Below, one piece after another: positions 21,001 through 27,000 of a stretch of 64,000 bases of DNA. The stretch is from assembly GCF_053078305.1 (NCBI RefSeq), contig NZ_CP166879.1; one strand, given 5' to 3'. Each line of letters starts with the position of its first letter. The first letter of the stretch is position 1. The position numbers were made by a program.

Positions 21001-24000
21001 CCGGACCTCTCAGGGCTGTCAGCCCCACTGTGGTCAACAGGGTGATACCAGAACTCGCCCGCAATTTTAATTCAGTTTGTCTCCGACATCACCAGATTTT
21101 TGTTTATGAGAAAAATTAATTTTTCTTTTCCTGCCCCTGCTGTTTCCCTGCTCACCAGCAATTCCCCTGCAGTCGGGATAACGGGAGCATCCCCAGAAAA
21201 AACCGCTTTTTCCCTTCCGTTTCACCGTCGGACCGTTACAGAGTGGACATGAAGGACCTGATTCCACTGACAGATTAACCGTCTGGTTACGTCCGGATAA
21301 TACCAGGTGCCTGATCCACTGATGCTGTTTCTCCATAAACGCCTCCAGTGAGATTTTCCCCCGGGCAACATCATCCAGCGCCTGTTCCCATAAAGCCGTC
21401 ATACCCGGATTTGTCAGAGAGTCCGGCAATGCCGCCACCAGTTCTCTTCCCAGTTGCGTGGAACGGATATGTTTTCCCGCTCTCTCAATATAGTTGCGCG
21501 CAAATAACGTTTCCAGGATCCCCGCGCGTGTGGCTTCCGTTCCCAGTCCCGCATTCTCCCTCAGGATCTTTTTCAACACCGGATCCGTTACACCAGACGA
21601 AGCATTCTTCATCGCAGTAATAAGACTGCCTTCAGTAAAAGGACGGGGAGGTACGGTTTTCAGCTCCTTCTGTTCAGCACCATCCAGAGCACAGAGTTCT
21701 CCCTTTATCAAAGGGGGCAATATGTTTCCACTTTCATCACTGTCAGGCTTTTCTTCATCTGCATGATTTTCCGGTGGAAATAACTGTTTCCACCCGATAA
21801 TCACATTAACTCTTCCGCGGGAACGGAATAACTGCCCCCCAATCACAAATGTTGCCTCAGTAACATCGGCTTCCTGCTCCGGCAGAAACTGTGCCAGATA
21901 GTGCTGACGAATCAGTTGATATACCTTCAGTTCATCACCGTTCAGTAAGCTGAGGTCAAAAACCTGCCGGGTCGGAATAATGGCATGGTGAGCCGTAATT
22001 TTTTTATCATTCCAGATACGGGATACCCGTCCTGATTCCAGTTCAGCCAGTTGTGGAAGCACGGACGGATCTGAACGCCCGACAGCCTCAAGCACTTCAG
22101 AACTCTCCTCATGCATCGAGGCAGGCAGATAACCACAGTCTGTCCTGGGATAAGTTGTTGCTTTGTGAGTCTCATAAAGGGACTGTGCGATATCCAGAAC
22201 GGTCTGAGCCCCCATGCCAAACTTCCGGGAACAGGCTTCCTGCAACGTTCCCAGCGAAAAACACAAAGGTGGCGGTGTTTTCTCCCTCTTCTGTACAACA
22301 TCCTGTACAACAGCAGAGGACTGCTGACGGCACAGACCGAGAACAGCACCGGCCGCCTGCACATTCACACAACGTCCCTCATCATCGCAGTACTGCTCAG
22401 CTGCCACCCAGTTACTGCGGAAACGGAGCCCCTCCTTTTCCAGCCAGACAATCACCTGCCACCAGGAAACCGGCACAAATGTGGCGATCTCCTGATCCCG
22501 TCTGACCACCATTGCCAGCGTGGGTGTCTGCACCCGGCCCACTGACAAAACCCCAGAAATTCCACGTTCCCGTGCCTTCAGGGTATACAACCGGGTCAGA
22601 TTCATCCCTGTCAGCCAGTCAGCCCGGGCACGCCCCTTACCGGCTTCACTGAGAAGCGCAGTCTGTTCGCCCGGGAGAATATTATTCAGCGCCTTCCTGA
22701 TACTGGCCTCATCCAGTGCAGATAACCACAGACGCCTGACACGCCCTCTGTACTGACAGTACTCCAGCAACTCTCTGGCTATCACTTCTCCTTCACGATC
22801 GGCATCTGTGGCAATAACCACTTCAGAAGCGCGTTTTAACAGCCCCCGGATCACAATAAGTTGTTTTTTCACCTTCGGCTTCACCACCATCTGCCATTGT
22901 TCCGGTATCAGCGGCAACACATCAGAACGCCATGGGGAACCGAACTGTTCACCGTAAGCTTCCGGCTCAGCCAGTTCCAGCAGGTGCCCTATCGCCCAGG
23001 TGACAGCAATATTGTCATCTCCGATGTATCCGTCGCCCCGCTTACTGAGCGCCAGTTCACGGGCGATATCTTTCGCCTGAGAAGGTTTTTCACACAGAAA
23101 GAGTTGCATACTCACCCCGCTTTAACCGGTGGTGAATAAACAGAACGTTTCTTACCGCTCATCACGTCAGGATCCGGCTCCCCCATGCGGTTAACCGCCT
23201 CCTTTCCACGGGCTGTGCCGGACAAAATATCAGCACGTGTAACACTGACTGATTTATAATTTTGAATAATCCCGTAAATCCTGCGTACCGCATACCCTCC
23301 CTGATTCAGCAACTCATCCCGTTTTGTGCGGGAAATAAGTCCGTAATGAAATACCTGAAATACCTTCATGACCAGTCGATCATATCCGATCAGAAGCCAT
23401 ACACATCGATAACCGACCGGAGAACTACTGTACACGCCAATATTTACCGGCGAAGAGGATTTAATATCAGAAAGGGAGATCTGTCCCGGCAGGTTTTTAA
23501 GGATCCCGTCAAGCCACGCAAGATGCTTTTCAATTGTTTCAGTTGCCTTCGTCAGGGCATTTTCCAGCCTGACTAACATCATATCTGCATAAGGATTATC
23601 CCTGGCTGAATCTCTGGTTGCCTGACCCGCAAACGCAATAGCCCTGGGCATACTGATGATGTCAGGCCGCTTTTCCTGTTTTTCTTCCTTCTGATTATTC
23701 CTGCGTCCCTCCCAGAGACGGATCGCATATCGGGTATGAAGGGCAATAGTCAGCGATGACTGCAGAGCACCAACTTGTTCTGATTTTCTGACTTCTCCGG
23801 TTTTCTCCTGGGGCATTGTGTTTACTCCGAATGATTTCATGACCAGAAGATAGTCCGCAGGTTGCGTATTACCGACAACAAAAAAACAAATCAGGCAGAA
23901 TATACATTTAACGCCGCTTATTTTTTAATCGCTGTTGCCACTGGCAACACTGCTCATTTTTTAATCTCTGTTGCCACTGGCAACATCGCTCACTTTTTAA

Positions 24001-27000
24001 TCACTGTTGCCACTAGCAACACCGCTCACTTTTTAACCTCTGTTGCCACTGGCAACACCGCTCACTTTTTAATCTCTGTTGCCACTGGCAACACCGCTCA
24101 TTTTTTAATCTCTGTTGCCACTGGCAACACCGCTCACTTTTTAACCTCTGTTGCCACTGGCAACACCGCTCATTTTTTAATCACTGTTGCCACTGGCAGC
24201 ACTGTTCACTTTTTAACCTCTGCTGCCACTGGCAGCACTGTTCGCTTTTTAACCTCTGCTGCCACTGGCAGCACTGCTCATTTTTTAATCTCTGCTGCCA
24301 CTGGCAGCACTGTTCATTTTTTAATCTCTGTTGCCACTGGCAACATCGCTCACTTTTTAATCACTGTTGCCACTAGCAACACCGCTCACTTTTTAACCTC
24401 TGTTGCCACTGGCAACACTGCTCATTTTTTAATCTCTGTTGCCACTGGCAACATCGCTCACTTTTTAATCTCTGTTGCCACTAGCAACACCGCTCACTTT
24501 TTAACCTCTGTTGCCACTGGCAACACCGCTCACTTTTTAATCTCTGTTGCCACTGGCAACACCGCTCATTTTTTAATCTCTGTTGCCACTGGCAACACCG
24601 CTCACTTTTTAACCTCTGTTGCCACTGGCAACACCGCTCATTTTTTAATCACTGTTGCCACTGGCAGCACTGTTCACTTTTTAACCTCTGCTGCCACTGG
24701 CAGCACTGTTCGCTTTTTAACCTCTGCTGCCACTGGCAGCACTGCTCATTTTTTAATCTCTGCTGCCACTGGCAGCACTGTTCGTTTTTTAATCTCTGCT
24801 GCCACTGGCAGCACTGTTCGCTTTTTAACCTCTGCTGCCACTGGCAGCACTGTTCACTTTTTAACCTCTGCTGCCACTGGCAGCACTGTTCGCTTTTTAA
24901 CCTCTGCTGCCACTGGCAGCACTGCTCATTTTTTAATCTCTGCTGCCACTGGCAGCACTGTTCATTTTTTAATCTCTGTTGCCACTGGCAACATCGCTCA
25001 CTTTTTAATCACTGTTGCCACTAGCAACACCGCTCACTTTTTAACCTCTGTTGCCACTGGCAACACTGCTCATTTTTTAATCTCTGTTGCCACTGGCAAC
25101 ATCGCTCACTTTTTAATCTCTGTTGCCACTGGCAACACCGCTCATTTTTTAATCACTGTTGCCACTGGCAACATGGTTAATGATGACTACTACCTTAACG
25201 TTCAGAGACAAAAACAGCATTAATGTCGTTATCCCCATCACGAGCAACTGAATGTCGGTTATATCCAGATGAGACAATGACCAGAAAATCACAAAAAATG
25301 AAAAGCATTCTGCCAGCAGACTCAGGAGGAGCATAAATTGCAGGCCCCCTCCGACTGTACTGCCTGTACGCGCTTTATAAAGACTGTATGTGATCCACAG
25401 CCAGTTACTTAACACCAGGAAAAACCACCCTGTGGCACATACGATATAACACATACTGTTATCGTACTGTTCGTGCATTGTTTTCAGCGCAGTGAGCAGG
25501 GTCTCTGTGCCTGTCACCAGTCCCCAGATAACCACCACTCCGGCAATCACGCAGGCACAAATTTTAGCGATCAACAGGCCACTTTCTTTCATGGCTGCAC
25601 TCAGACTTTCCTGTTTGTATTTCTGCATGCTATTTACCACCTTGTTTCACCTGACCAGTTCCCGATTCTGTTTTCTTTTTAACCAGTCGCTGGCGGCACT
25701 GGTTGATTTTTATTCCCGCGAACATAGCCCGTATCGCAATCACTCAGGTCTCATCGCAGAACATCTGCGCAGCGAGGCCCGTAATCCAGCCACAATGCCA
25801 CTCAGACGTTCTGCTGAAATCGGTTCCGTACGTTTCCCCGATGAAACTGATTGCGCAGTAGCTCGCCCCCTTTCTCCTGCCAGTACGGAGGCTGGCACAA
25901 CAACACGTTGTTTCTGCTTCGGCGGATAAAAATTTCCCTCCCGGGCTCGCTTCAGCACTGCAAGCAACCAGCCCACAGGATTCTGCAGCGAGTGGCTGCC
26001 CAGCATCCCTGACAGACTTTCCAGAACCCCCTGCGCCAGTTCTTCCGGCAGCGCCTGCAACTGACTGGTCAGCATAATGGCCTCCTCCTCCCTGATTTGC
26101 CCTGTCAGCGCTTCAGGCAATACGTACGTGTTTTTAATCACACTGTGTGTGATATTACGTACGTAATGGTTCGGTTTCCGAACTCTGTGATAACCTTTTG
26201 ATTTTTCTGATGGTTCGGTTTCCGAACTCAGTATTTTTTGCCCCTGTTTTTCACTGAGTTCGGAATCCGAACTCAGCATTTTCAATACCGAACTCTGTGT
26301 TTCTACCCCCGGTTCGGTTTCCGAACCCGGCTGCATTCTGTCCTCAGTCACCAGCTGACGGGCCGCCATCTGTCCCGGTGTCTGGGCACTCCCTATCCGG
26401 GCTTCCAGTTGACTGATATGGCTGTGATAATGACGCATTCCCGGATCATTTTTTATTTCGCACAGAATATCCCGGGCCGTCTGACTTATGGTCCGGTTCC
26501 GGCTCATACAGGCATCTGCCACCATATCCAGATAACGTGGATCCAGTATTTCAGCATCCCGGCACGTCACCGGTTCATCGTGCTGGGCATAAATATTGCC
26601 CCGTACCCGCCCTTTCTCATCACGCACCCGTTTGCACAGACTCAGCCAGCCCGTGATCCGCAGCATCAGCAGCACCCGGCTGACAGTCTCCCTGGAGGCT
26701 TTTCCTTTCCCCGGGGAAGCCAACTGCAGTTGCAGTTCGTCATATGTGGGGAAAACTGCACCTTCATTATTCTGTGCATACAGCCGAATCATCATCCACG
26801 CCATCTTATCCAGCGGAGAAAGTCGCGTATCCAGAAGCAGTCGACGCGGAATGGCATCATGCACATTTCCGGTAAACAGCAGTCCGCTTTGTATTTTTCC
26901 GTCCTGTTGTCGGCCTTTTTGCACTATCCGCTCTTGCATTTTTTCCAGCGTGTACGCAATCAGGCTGTCTACGGGTAATGTCATTACACTTTTCCTTTTT

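Follow-up and report, generated by a model that had tools for sequence, protein, structure and literature searches.

What does a long run of palindromic repeats do in an ICE of E. coli, and which protein recognizes it? A sequence-only reading of the locus had described some 35 tandem 36-bp units, each with a 17-bp palindrome, and had proposed that they are sites for the ParB protein encoded by the same element. The array was analysed here within the window, meaning the whole 64-kb stretch of DNA, and alongside homologous arrays in related elements.

Organization of the array and its surroundings

Tandem Repeats Finder returned a single array (23910-25173; period 36, 35.1 copies, 91% matches, without indels), and the centres of all 35 palindromes were spaced exactly 36 bp apart. 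In this E. coli ICE the array spans 23914-25173 (1.26 kb) and is built of 35 units, each exactly 36 bp long, in agreement with the earlier estimate.

23914..25173, unstranded: tandem array of 35 x 36-bp units (repeat finding and palindrome census; relatives have homologous arrays in the same place)
23933..23949, unstranded: the palindrome TGTTGCCACTGGCAACA closest to the PFL_4669-family gene, just upstream of a promoter-like site

Each unit consists of a T-rich (A-tract) spacer and a 17-bp palindrome, TG(T/C)TGCCA-C-TGGCA(A/G)CA. The census gave 18 copies of TGTTGCCACTGGCAACA and 11 of TGCTGCCACTGGCAGCA; four units carried TGTTGCCACTAGCAACA, in which one arm is broken, and a hybrid, TGTTGCCACTGGCAGCA, was present twice, at both T-to-C subtype boundaries of the array. 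When the whole window was searched with up to two mismatches, 70 matches were obtained, corresponding to 35 sites on two strands, and all were confined to the array (chance expectation, 0.06). The order of unit types along the array was ABCDEFDGHIJKCDBLDEFDGHIJMIHIJKCDBNO; a block of 8 units recurs 13 units further on and a block of 6 units is repeated once more, bearing out the suggestion that blocks of units have been re-duplicated.

The array lies in a module encoding DnaB, TopB and SSB, with the following features on its PFL_4669 side:

21067-23115, minus strand: topB
23112-23840, minus strand: PFL_4669/AcaB-family gene
23899..23928, minus strand: promoter-like site of the PFL_4669/topB gene series (consensus match only)

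The STY4528-family gene and the genes for ParB and DnaB are likewise on the minus strand. Since the flanking genes all share one strand, the array sits within a co-directional gene series and not between divergent operons; the description of the topB operon as divergent was mistaken. The promoter-like site (-35 TTAAAA, 18 nt, -10 TATATT) overlaps the last A-tract of the array with its -35 element, and a similar layout of palindrome, A-tract and promoter-like site was seen in single-copy relatives. The PFL_4669-family gene product matched Pfam AcaB, a transcription regulator, over its full length.

Homologous arrays carry a published label

The sequence-only reading had not recognized the array from described ICEs. 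As a sequence feature it is not new; position and sequence show homology with repeats of pKLC102 and PFGI-1 that bear the annotation putative oriV. Like the 57-bp repeats of pKLC102, it lies between the STY4528-family and PFL_4669/AcaB-family genes, and the palindrome of the window, TGTTGCCACTGGCAACA, recurs unchanged in pKLC102 units alongside GTGGTGCCACTGGCACCAC; compensatory palindrome variants are present in the pKLC102 array as well. The two differ in that pKLC102 has 57-bp units with a GC-rich spacer, whereas the units here are 36 bp with an A-tract spacer. The pKLC102 'oriV' has been described as 15-16 direct repeats of 57 bp (Klockgether et al. 2004), and that of PFGI-1 as four repeats of 46 bp that each contain an inverted repeat of 21 bp (Mavrodi et al. 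2009, PMC2647930), a description which matches the array. In both cases the label 'origin of replication' was proposed from sequence features.

Copy number of the homologous repeats ranged from 1 to ~65 across Enterobacterales ICEs, and from 2 to ~65 among near-identical E. coli ICEs, as would fit the earlier proposal of expansion by unequal recombination. In many relatives, no more than one or two palindromes are present, between A-tracts and beside a promoter-like site, and one or two sites seem to be enough. In the relatives compared, the array always ended 87-280 bp upstream of the AcaB-family gene; in pKLC102 the distance to the PFL_4669-family gene is ~400 bp, with a small ORF in between.

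Dyad symmetry is maintained across lineages

Across 62 related loci, which yielded 54 distinct 17-mers, 96.8% of pair cells were complementary, and five of the eight palindrome pairs had changed on both sides. These data support selection on the dyad symmetry of the palindrome, and the co-variation of its arms, first noticed within the array, extends over the 54 variants. The innermost pair, 8/10, was as symmetric as the others; this pair could not be used by a hairpin, and symmetry extending to it fits a dimer on double-stranded DNA. Positions 1, 2 and 4 were invariant from Pseudomonas to E. coli, suggesting a constraint on sequence rather than on structure.

The ICE encodes a ParB protein of BisD/KorB type

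29698..31431, minus strand: ICE ParB-family protein, 577 aa from Met, TIGR03764 class (profile match, structure model, motifs)
30865..31029, minus strand: ParB residues 135-189, helix-turn-helix (HTH) segment (structure model and allele comparison)
30889..30891, minus strand: codon of ParB residue 181 (Tyr here), which tracks palindrome base pair 3/15

The fold of the ICE ParB is of the KorB/Noc/ParB kind: the protein's best Foldseek matches were KorB, Noc, ParB and Spo0J, and the best structural match of its N-terminal half was RK2 KorB (8qa9, E 1.5e-6). Two CTP-binding motifs, GNTR (GxxR) at residue 90 and ENEVR (ENxxR) at residue 132, were invariant in the alignment. In the AlphaFold (AF2) model (pLDDT 86), the HTH is predicted to consist of a helix at residues 165-174, a turn, and a recognition helix at residues 181-194, such that residue 181 starts the second helix. 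The protein is of BisD/KorB type, so gene activation through clamp loading may be its function no less than partition.

Two further proteins of the element are relevant to such functions:

28369..28983, minus strand: DUF2857 protein (annotation of identical proteins in relatives; faint FlhD match)
34641..35537, minus strand: ParA/MinD-superfamily P-loop ATPase (matches under curated cut-offs)

The DUF2857 domain is carried by BisC (PMC7423338), and the DUF2857 protein is likely a BisC-like partner of the ParB/BisD-like protein; its gene is two genes downstream of ParB in E. coli, whereas the two genes are immediate neighbours in pKLC102 and in Pantoea/Erwinia plasmids. The ATPase is a possible partition partner; the protein in the same position in relatives is annotated as ParA family.

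A recognition-helix residue of ParB changes in step with the palindrome

In a set of 12 near-identical E. coli ICEs, each of three ParB alleles had its own palindrome allele, without exception: IHYSTISR was paired with TGT... arrays, IHNSTISR with TGC... arrays, and VSHTSISR, together with 16 further changes confined to residues 135-189, with TGG... arrays. Residue 181 thus tracked base pair 3/15 in 12/12 elements, and residues 135-189 differed by 17 substitutions between E. coli ICEs with T/C-type and G-type arrays. When 14 kb of DNA was compared between a C-type and a G-type element, no more than 4 mismatches per 250 bp were found outside four places, namely the array, the ParB HTH patch, a C-terminal stretch of ParB and part of dnaB; the array and the ParB patch are ~5 kb apart, with near-identical DNA between them.

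The same relation was found over elements of E. coli, Salmonella, Citrobacter, Serratia, Pantoea, Erwinia, Photorhabdus, Xenorhabdus and Pseudomonas, in which Y or F at residue 181 occurred with T at base pair 3/15, N or D with C, H with G, and Q with A. The ParB of pKLC102 (VSH) is found with TGGTGCCA and that of SGI-4 (HN) with TGCTGGCA; HY/HF proteins of Citrobacter, Serratia, Pantoea and Erwinia accompany TGTTG..., SQ proteins of Photorhabdus and Erwinia oleae accompany TGATTA..., and SD proteins of Xenorhabdus accompany TGCTG.... With each genus-by-residue group counted once, 28/30 groups were pure, with a permutation p <= 5e-5 that overstates independence because the elements are phylogenetically related. 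When ParB residues 96-230 were scanned without bias, residue 181 ranked first for base 3, with an excess purity of 14.7; the runner-up column reached 8.2.

The exceptions were two elements with H at residue 181 and T rather than G in the palindrome (DH and NH motifs), and one N-element with mainly T palindromes. The array of the window itself has 22 T-type and 11 C-type units under a single ParB; such mixing of alleles within one array implies either partial discrimination or that some units are weak sites. Inner palindrome positions 6-8 differed between lineages with identical recognition helices, and these positions are tentatively assigned to reading by ParB residues 203-211.

Neighbouring proteins gave no comparable signal. 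The STY4528 protein was identical in one C-type and two G-type E. coli elements, and its alignment had no class-discriminating column; the PFL_4669 (AcaB-like) protein was identical in 12/12 E. coli elements, across three palindrome alleles, and no column of the AcaB alignment discriminated palindrome classes. The DUF2857 and DUF2786 proteins were identical in 11/12 elements; the twelfth, OkiPb01677, has different versions of both, yet a T-type array like that of the window. Computation thus strongly supports the ICE ParB as the best candidate, among the neighbouring DNA-binding candidates, for binding the palindromes, and ParB is most likely the partner of the array because variation at a residue of its recognition helix follows that at one base pair of the repeat. 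The original proposal of ParB sites draws its support from this covariation. We place at roughly 0.75 the probability that the array is a set of tandem binding or loading sites for the ICE-encoded, KorB/BisD-like HTH protein with its CTP motifs.

Other explanations of the array

The published label would make the array the iterons of a vegetative origin (oriV), with the product of the neighbouring STY4528-family gene as the initiator that binds them; such is the annotation of the homologous repeats in pKLC102, PFGI-1 and ICEHin1056. Position and palindrome are shared with the 15 57-bp repeats of pKLC102, called a putative oriV in the literature, and the DnaB, TopB and SSB genes of the surrounding module would suit an origin. 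The covariation, however, points to ParB and not to an initiator as the binder, the same STY4528 protein being found beside C-type and G-type arrays. Better-fitting Rep boxes, four GTTCGG(W)3CCGAAC repeats, are present separately inside the STY4528 gene; their sequence is unlike the array palindrome and they sit, as in pSK41, in the DNA encoding the disordered linker of the protein. The array and its immediate flanks have no DnaA box (TTWTNCACA), the nearest being at 23086, there is no GC-skew switch (a weak test for an ICE), and 1 to ~65 copies would be odd for copy-control iterons. In the literature accessible to search, no experimental proof of origin function for the homologous repeats, including a mini-replicon assay, was found. 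An origin is thus unlikely. Slightly less probable still is a role in regulating the PFL_4669 (AcaB-family) operon, in which the AcaB-like or the DUF2857 (BisC-like) protein would use the palindromes as operators or activator sites at the operon promoter and the long array would be a neutral expansion of one such site. This would account for the constant placement of the array upstream of a gene for a full-length AcaB match, and for the many relatives with one or two A-tract-flanked palindromes beside a promoter-like site; ICEclc BisDC, moreover, activates promoters in the corresponding regulatory region (PMC12409273, PMC7423338). Against it, both proposed binders are nearly or wholly constant in the E. 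coli elements whatever the palindrome allele, the AcaB alignment does not separate the classes, and the pKLC102 array is set farther from the gene, behind a small ORF.

Compensatory changes in the arms would equally be expected of hairpins in single-stranded DNA or RNA, acting in complementary-strand priming after transfer, attenuation or RNA stabilisation. A unit does fold as a 7-bp stem with a 3-nt loop (-6.2 kcal/mol, z ~ -4), and three plus-strand units scored as terminator-like. Nevertheless, the unpairable pair 8/10 is equally symmetric, positions 1, 2 and 4 are fixed, the G-T of broken units falls sometimes in one strand and sometimes in the other, the T-run begins 7-8 nt past the stem, no Rfam family was matched, and a hairpin would not be expected to follow a ParB residue, all of which make this explanation improbable. 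Coding capacity is the least plausible, and we give it very little weight. One frame (+, offset 2) is open through the entire array, forming a 453-aa plus-strand ORF (23862-25223), and in relatives PGAP has placed CDSs over the array ('hypothetical protein', 'saposin' or 'beta strand repeat-containing protein'), on the opposite strand in SGI-4 and PapRG-04-4, so that minus-strand ORFs might also encode a repeat protein. A 36-bp unit is 12 codons, however, and chance alone would leave about half of all frames open; of 11 variable columns, 6 are at codon position 2, 14 synonymous changes stand against 28 non-synonymous ones, and no NCBIfam match was obtained. The annotated strand and frame vary among relatives, the ORF is lost in elements with 1-2 units, and it is the palindrome, not a peptide, that is conserved.

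A proposed role in ParB clamp loading

By analogy, a clamp of BisD/KorB type is likely loaded at the array, which would resemble parS or bisS in this respect and serve partition, activation of transfer genes, or both. We infer that ParB binds the units physically and is loaded in a CTP-dependent manner. A ParB dimer would read each 17-bp palindrome, each monomer taking one half-site, with recognition-helix residue 181 contacting base pair 3/15. The sites would then catalyse clamp closure, as in ParB-parS, KorB-OB and ICEclc BisD-bisS, and closed clamps would slide out onto flanking ICE DNA. On the excised ICE, such clamps could assemble into a partition complex for use by ParA; the neighbouring DUF2857 (BisC-like) protein could also join ParB in activating the downstream co-directional replication and transfer genes. 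Unequal recombination would let copy number drift (1 to ~65 in relatives, 35 here).

In ICEclc, the ParB-like CTP clamp BisD binds bisS sites (Antar et al. 2025, PMC12409273), loading at odd-length palindromes in the syntenic regulatory region. Both elements belong to the same broad ICE family, both have a ParB-like gene beside a DUF2857 (BisC-type) gene, both have odd-length palindromes with a free central base in a regulatory/replication module upstream of co-directional transfer genes, and in both the ParB-like protein is long and has an additional region at its C-terminus. In contrast to the tandem arrays described here, with up to ~65 copies of a 17-bp palindrome unrelated to bisS in sequence, bisS is a 23-bp palindrome, GAGCTATCCCCnGGGGATAGCTC (11+1+11), in two single copies inside genes. 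A palindrome scan of the window did not return the bisS sequence; its sole 11+1+11 palindrome, CTGAGTTCGGAATCCGAACTCAG, lies inside the STY4528 gene and resembles ICEclc 'bisS-3', which is not bound by BisD.

The palindromes bound by KorB are likewise of odd length (13 bp); KorB forms a CTP-dependent clamp and functions both in partition and in the control of transcription. Its OB operators are dispersed singly over RK2 and not arrayed, it represses whereas BisD activates, and it shares only ~20% sequence identity with the ICE ParB. The F-plasmid sopC centromere consists of 12 direct repeats of 43 bp, each with a 7-bp inverted repeat, and is bound by SopB. The sopC-like layout that had been pointed out holds for the array, in that both are tandem direct repeats (35 of 36 bp here) with one dyad-symmetric site each for a ParB-family protein, a candidate one in this case, and in far more copies than would be expected to be needed. 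They differ in unit length and sequence, and sopC adjoins sopB directly whereas the array is ~4.5 kb from parB; SopB was not among the listed structural matches of the ICE ParB, of which KorB and Noc were the closest.

Canonical chromosomal parS was considered and rejected as the identity of the palindrome, as the half-site TGTTGCCA of the array matches TGTTNCAC only at TGTT.C; parS has 16 bp, whereas the palindrome has 17 bp with a central unpaired base and, at its three inner positions, departs from parS and is itself variable among lineages. The likeness of the outer half-sites seen at first inspection is nonetheless real, TGTT..C / G..AACA being common to chromosomal parS, TGTTNCACGTGAAACA, and the palindrome. 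In the pKLC102 variant TGTTTCCAGTGGAAACA, the outer six bases of each arm are those of parS.

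A regular array of symmetric sites

The ICE, hosted by E. coli, belongs to the pKLC102/PAPI-1/SPI-7/PFGI-1 family, and its genes follow one another on the minus strand.

Features around the array, in minus-strand order
34641-35537 (-): ParA
(-): DnaB (SPI-7 type)
29698-31431 (-): ParB (TIGR03764), 577 aa
30799-30825 (-): ParB residues 203-211, ESGLGRPQV
(-): DUF2786, DUF2857, small ORFs, XF1762
25740-26984 (-): STY4528-family 'replication protein'
(-): 163-aa ORF
23914-25173: array
(-): PFL_4669-family, TopB, STY4534, SSB, pilus/T4SS genes

The sequence-only reading had placed the array next to a 'divergent' topB operon; topB and the PFL_4669-family gene share the minus strand with the upstream STY4528, ParB and DnaB genes, and there is therefore no divergent arrangement at the array. 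The Pfam family AcaB (transcription regulator) matches the PFL_4669-family protein over its full length; searches of Pfam and of PDB sequences gave no match for ParB, STY4528 or the 163-aa ORF.

The repeat structure was as originally described: Tandem Repeats Finder resolved 35.1 copies at 23910-25173, with a period of 36 bp, 91% matches and no indels, and neighbouring palindrome centres lie exactly 36 bp apart for all 35 units. The re-duplication of blocks was also borne out, with one block of 8 units and one of 6 units repeated within the array. Units were typed by the base at palindrome pair 3/15 (T-, C-, G- or A-type, for palindromes starting TGT, TGC, TGG or TGA), and the window's array combines 22 T-type and 11 C-type units under a single ParB. 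When up to 2 mismatches were allowed, the palindrome motif was absent from the 64-kb window outside the array, where 0.06 hits are expected by chance.

Palindromes in the 35 units of the window array
TGTTGCCACTGGCAACA: 18 units
TGCTGCCACTGGCAGCA: 11 units
G-to-A change, one pair broken: 4 units
T/G hybrid: 2 units, at subtype boundaries

Over 54 distinct 17-mers, pairs 1/17, 2/16 and 4/14 were invariant, and double-sided changes at pairs 3/15, 5/13, 6/12, 7/11 and 8/10 amounted to 77 cells, a value reached by none of 500 shuffles. Since the sites were selected as palindromic, the percentage of paired cells is a circular measure; the range of different compensated variants escapes this circularity. 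The array is real and under selection.

The dyad symmetry had been attributed either to a dimeric site or to a hairpin. As a single strand, the unit folds modestly into a 7-bp stem with a 3-nt loop (-6.2 kcal/mol), in which the innermost pair is left unpaired, yet that pair is as symmetric as the others. Units working as hairpins or RNA are thus a weak, minor rival, which leaves unexplained both this symmetry and the invariant outer bases; a search of known RNA families gave no match to the array. The same two features of the aligned sites argue for a dimeric protein on duplex DNA more than for a hairpin.

A protein-coding role for the repeat was rejected. Annotation pipelines have predicted CDSs across the array in related loci from other genomes (L001 5863-6972, L003 5239-5802, L004 5853-8294, L005 3188-3814, L007 3188-3634 and L008 5191-5625), on a strand that varies among records and with names such as 'hypothetical protein', 'saposin' and 'beta strand repeat-containing protein'; they are very probably spurious.

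Copy number among related elements

When copy number was compared across related ICEs, as had been suggested from the sequence, near-identical E. coli elements were found to differ widely in array size, between 2 and about 65 units, at a constant period of 36 bp. A third palindrome allele, TGGTGCCACTGGCACCA, occurs among these elements, and the units of a more distant E. coli ICE carry TGCTGCCCCGGGCAGCA; Salmonella SGI-4 has about 11 units with TGCTGGCAGTGCCAGCA, a Citrobacter element 2 units and a Serratia plasmid 14. A scan of one genome per species yielded 80 Enterobacterales loci, and in about 35 of these a tandem array (period 36, or composite at about 108) ends 87-280 bp upstream of the PFL_4669-family gene; many other Enterobacterales loci have one or two palindromes with TTAAAAA tracts on either side, beside a promoter-like site. 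At least one TG.T....n....A.CA palindrome was present in 62 of 91 loci, where chance alone would give about 1.5. One or two sites appear to be sufficient.

Copy numbers from draft genomes are lower bounds, because short-read assemblies may break at the repeat; five draft contigs (L012, L066, L067, L071 and L075) end within some 150 bp of the PFL_4669-family gene, on its upstream side, at the place expected for the array. In strain PapRG-04-4, which carries the more distant E. coli ICE, the array and the PFL_4669-family gene are separated by an inserted MipA/OmpV-family outer-membrane gene (L003 4191-4937), and the array therefore lies about 1.2 kb from the PFL_4669-family gene. Three loci from Enterobacter and Pantoea (L019, L023 and L026) hold 3.5 copies of a 36-bp repeat with palindrome TGTTGCCACTGGCAACA and a non-A-tract spacer, CTTCCGAGCCGGATTCTAC. 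This repeat is remote from the usual site, some 2.6 kb upstream of the PFL_4669-family gene, and the ParB of these elements has the motif VSYSS.

In the E. coli relatives L001, L005, L007 and L099-L105, whose dominant type is C or G, one or two T-type units are kept in nearly every array, and in the two-unit array of L002 the T-type unit is the one adjoining the 163-aa ORF. Retention of this kind is the pattern that would be expected if end units escape homogenisation.

Array type follows the recognition helix of ParB

The array had been proposed as a site for the ICE's own ParB, and comparison of near-identical E. coli elements, from which alone the covariation signal emerged, favours that putative assignment. 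What distinguishes the ParBs of these almost identical ICEs is a patch of 17 closely spaced substitutions, all within residues 135-189, and patch type equals array type in 12 of 12 elements. In an AlphaFold model of ParB residues 1-300 (pLDDT 86), helix 165-174, a turn and helix 181-194 form a helix-turn-helix, the recognition helix of which is opened by residue 181.

ParB patch and array type in E. coli ICEs
IHYSTISR: T-type arrays
IHNSTISR: C-type arrays
VSHTSISR: G-type arrays

A C-type and a G-type element, compared over 14 kb, show at most 4 mismatches per 250 bp outside the divergent stretches, which are the array, the ParB helix-turn-helix patch, a C-terminal stretch of ParB and part of dnaB. 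The array and the ParB patch are separated by 5 kb of near-identical DNA, and a single recombination tract therefore does not account for their coupling. An operator for the AcaB-like or the DUF2857 protein would fit the position of the array, but it clashes with the invariance of these proteins: the PFL_4669 protein is identical in all 12 E. coli elements, and DUF2857 and DUF2786 are identical in 11 of them; in the twelfth, OkiPb01677, versions of both differ and the array is T-type like that of the window. One C-type and two G-type elements share an identical STY4528. A first association of proteins with sites, in which seven elements were grouped by inner-core class, had singled out only two ParB columns and no column of STY4528 or AcaB.

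The correspondence extends to other hosts. When 135 ParB columns were scanned without bias, residue 181 was the clear top correlate of base 3, and 28 of 30 groups were pure when each genus and residue was counted once (p <= 5e-5, by a test that ignores phylogeny). Two elements with H at residue 181 carry T-type sites. The pairings make chemical sense for protein-DNA recognition, in that G is matched by His, A by Gln, C by Asp or Asn, and the methyl group of T by an aromatic residue.

ParB residues and palindrome base 3 in other elements
pKLC102: VSH, G
SGI-4: HN, C
Citrobacter, Serratia, Pantoea, Erwinia, Mixta: HY or HF, T
Morganella, Serratia, Prodigiosinella, Kluyvera, Yersinia: HN, C
Photorhabdus, Erwinia oleae: SQ, A
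Xenorhabdus: SD, C

The proposed binding by ParB is the best-supported explanation of the array, and it brings with it a putative residue-to-base code. Inner positions 6-8 vary between lineages with identical recognition helices; in a column scan confounded by phylogeny, palindrome position 7 correlated best with residues 203, 206 and 211, and position 8 with residues 209-210. These hints make residues 203-211 a lead to a possible second DNA-reading element, one that would serve the inner bases.

The 'oriV' repeats and a candidate origin in STY4528

The sequence-only reading did not recognise the array from described ICEs; the version in relatives has in fact been described as a sequence feature and named oriV. 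Between STY4528 and PFL_4669, pKLC102 carries 15.2 copies of a 57-bp repeat, known in the literature as the pKLC102 oriV. Its units contain GTGGTGCCACTGGCACCAC, and also TGTTGCCACTGGCAACA, TGTTTCCAGTGGAAACA, TGATTCCACTGGAATCA and TGTTGCGGCCCGCAACA, the same palindrome family as in the window, with compensatory variants inside one array. In PFGI-1, a putative oriV of 46-bp repeats, each with a 21-bp inverted repeat, was placed 'immediately upstream of PFL_4669' (Mavrodi et al., PMC2647930), and the same kind of iteron-like oriV was described in ICEHin1056, SPI-7 and PAPI (Juhas et al.). In the papers covered by the analysis, no experiment showing origin activity of these repeats was found. The array and its immediate flanks contain no DnaA boxes, and there is no GC-skew switch at the array, a weak test that counts little for an ICE, which replicates mostly with the chromosome.

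A better candidate for the vegetative origin lies inside the STY4528-family gene, where four semi-palindromic direct repeats, GTTCGG(W)3CCGAAC (26169-26326), coincide exactly with the DNA for the disordered linker of the protein (residues 215-285). One of them is a perfect 23-bp palindrome, CTGAGTTCGGAATCCGAACTCAG (26254-26276), which has been reported four times in PFGI-1. The N-terminal winged helix of STY4528 resembles DnaD and pSK41 RepA, and the repeats may represent a RepA_N-like layout with the origin inside the initiator gene, an arrangement known so far mainly from Firmicutes plasmids. The 23-bp palindromes were also considered as a ParB site, having a bisS-like 11+1+11 geometry, and were set aside because BisD did not bind the ICEclc counterpart, 'bisS-3' (PMC12409273), and because an in-gene origin of the RepA_N kind is the better fit.

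A putative loading site for a ParB clamp

The best structural matches of ParB (Foldseek) were RK2 KorB (8qa9), Noc and ParB/Spo0J of several species, and the CTP motifs GxxR and ENxxR are present and invariant. The window's ParB is a long protein with a DUF2857 gene nearby, as in the BisD/BisC pair of ICEclc. In the syntenic region there, two palindromes of odd length are the loading sites of BisD, which slides about 50 kb along the direction of transcription and, with BisC, activates transfer-competence promoters (PMC12409273). By analogy, the array may be a multi-copy parS/bisS-like loading site, each palindrome of which would be bound by a ParB dimer; CTP-dependent clamps would afterwards move off the sites and spread over the ICE, and the clamp complex would serve ParA partition of the excised element, the switching-on of downstream genes by a DUF2857 partner, or both. 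Copy number would be shaped by unequal recombination, which fits the wide copy-number range, the frozen T-type units in nearly every E. coli array and the block duplications.

We reasoned that these elements may be linked in one reading: that the 'oriV' repeats of the pKLC102/PAPI-1/SPI-7/PFGI-1 family would be the loading array of a BisD/KorB-like ParB clamp and not an origin; that the code by which residue 181 is matched to base pair 3 (Y/F=T, N/D=C, H=G, Q=A) would divide the elements into specificity groups, and hence into incompatibility or immunity groups; and that the four Rep boxes, placed where the STY4528 gene encodes the linker, would be the true, RepA_N-like vegetative origin. To the three parts together we assign a probability of about 0.35.

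ICEs of the pKLC102/PAPI-1/SPI-7 family are vehicles by which genes for virulence and resistance spread in Pseudomonas, Salmonella, E. coli and Klebsiella, and the maintenance of these ICEs after excision and their switching-on are poorly understood. If the array is a ParB loading site, the published 'origin' label of the family needs correcting, and the BisD-type mechanism of ICEclc probably extends, with different sites, to this clinically important subfamily. The three ParB alleles with their three site alleles, found in E. coli ICEs that are otherwise identical, would then provide a ready system for the evolution of specificity in the ParB family, suited also to asking whether specificity sets the incompatibility of co-resident ICEs, and the spurious repeat 'proteins' in annotations, possibly with the assembly breaks at the array, would be accounted for.

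Other features of the region

Upstream of the ParA-like gene by about 140 bp, in the gap that separates this gene from a plus-strand 420-aa ORF, lies a 24-bp palindrome with 11-bp arms, AACGGACCTCC-AC-GGAGGTCCGTT (35678-35701), which could be a ParA operator or a site for another protein. The intergenic gap from topB to the STY4534-family gene is unusually long (20389-21066, about 680 bp), and its size is kept in SGI-4 and the Citrobacter element; it contains a palindrome, AAGCACCGGC-AA-GCCGGTGCTT (20864-20885), and a DnaA-box-like TTATGCACA at 20985, and a terminator, an oriT or another site is possible there. In two relatives (L002 568-2609 and L004 3068-5100) the annotation gives the ICE topB a frameshift; the arrays of these two are the shortest and the longest, with 2 and about 65 units.
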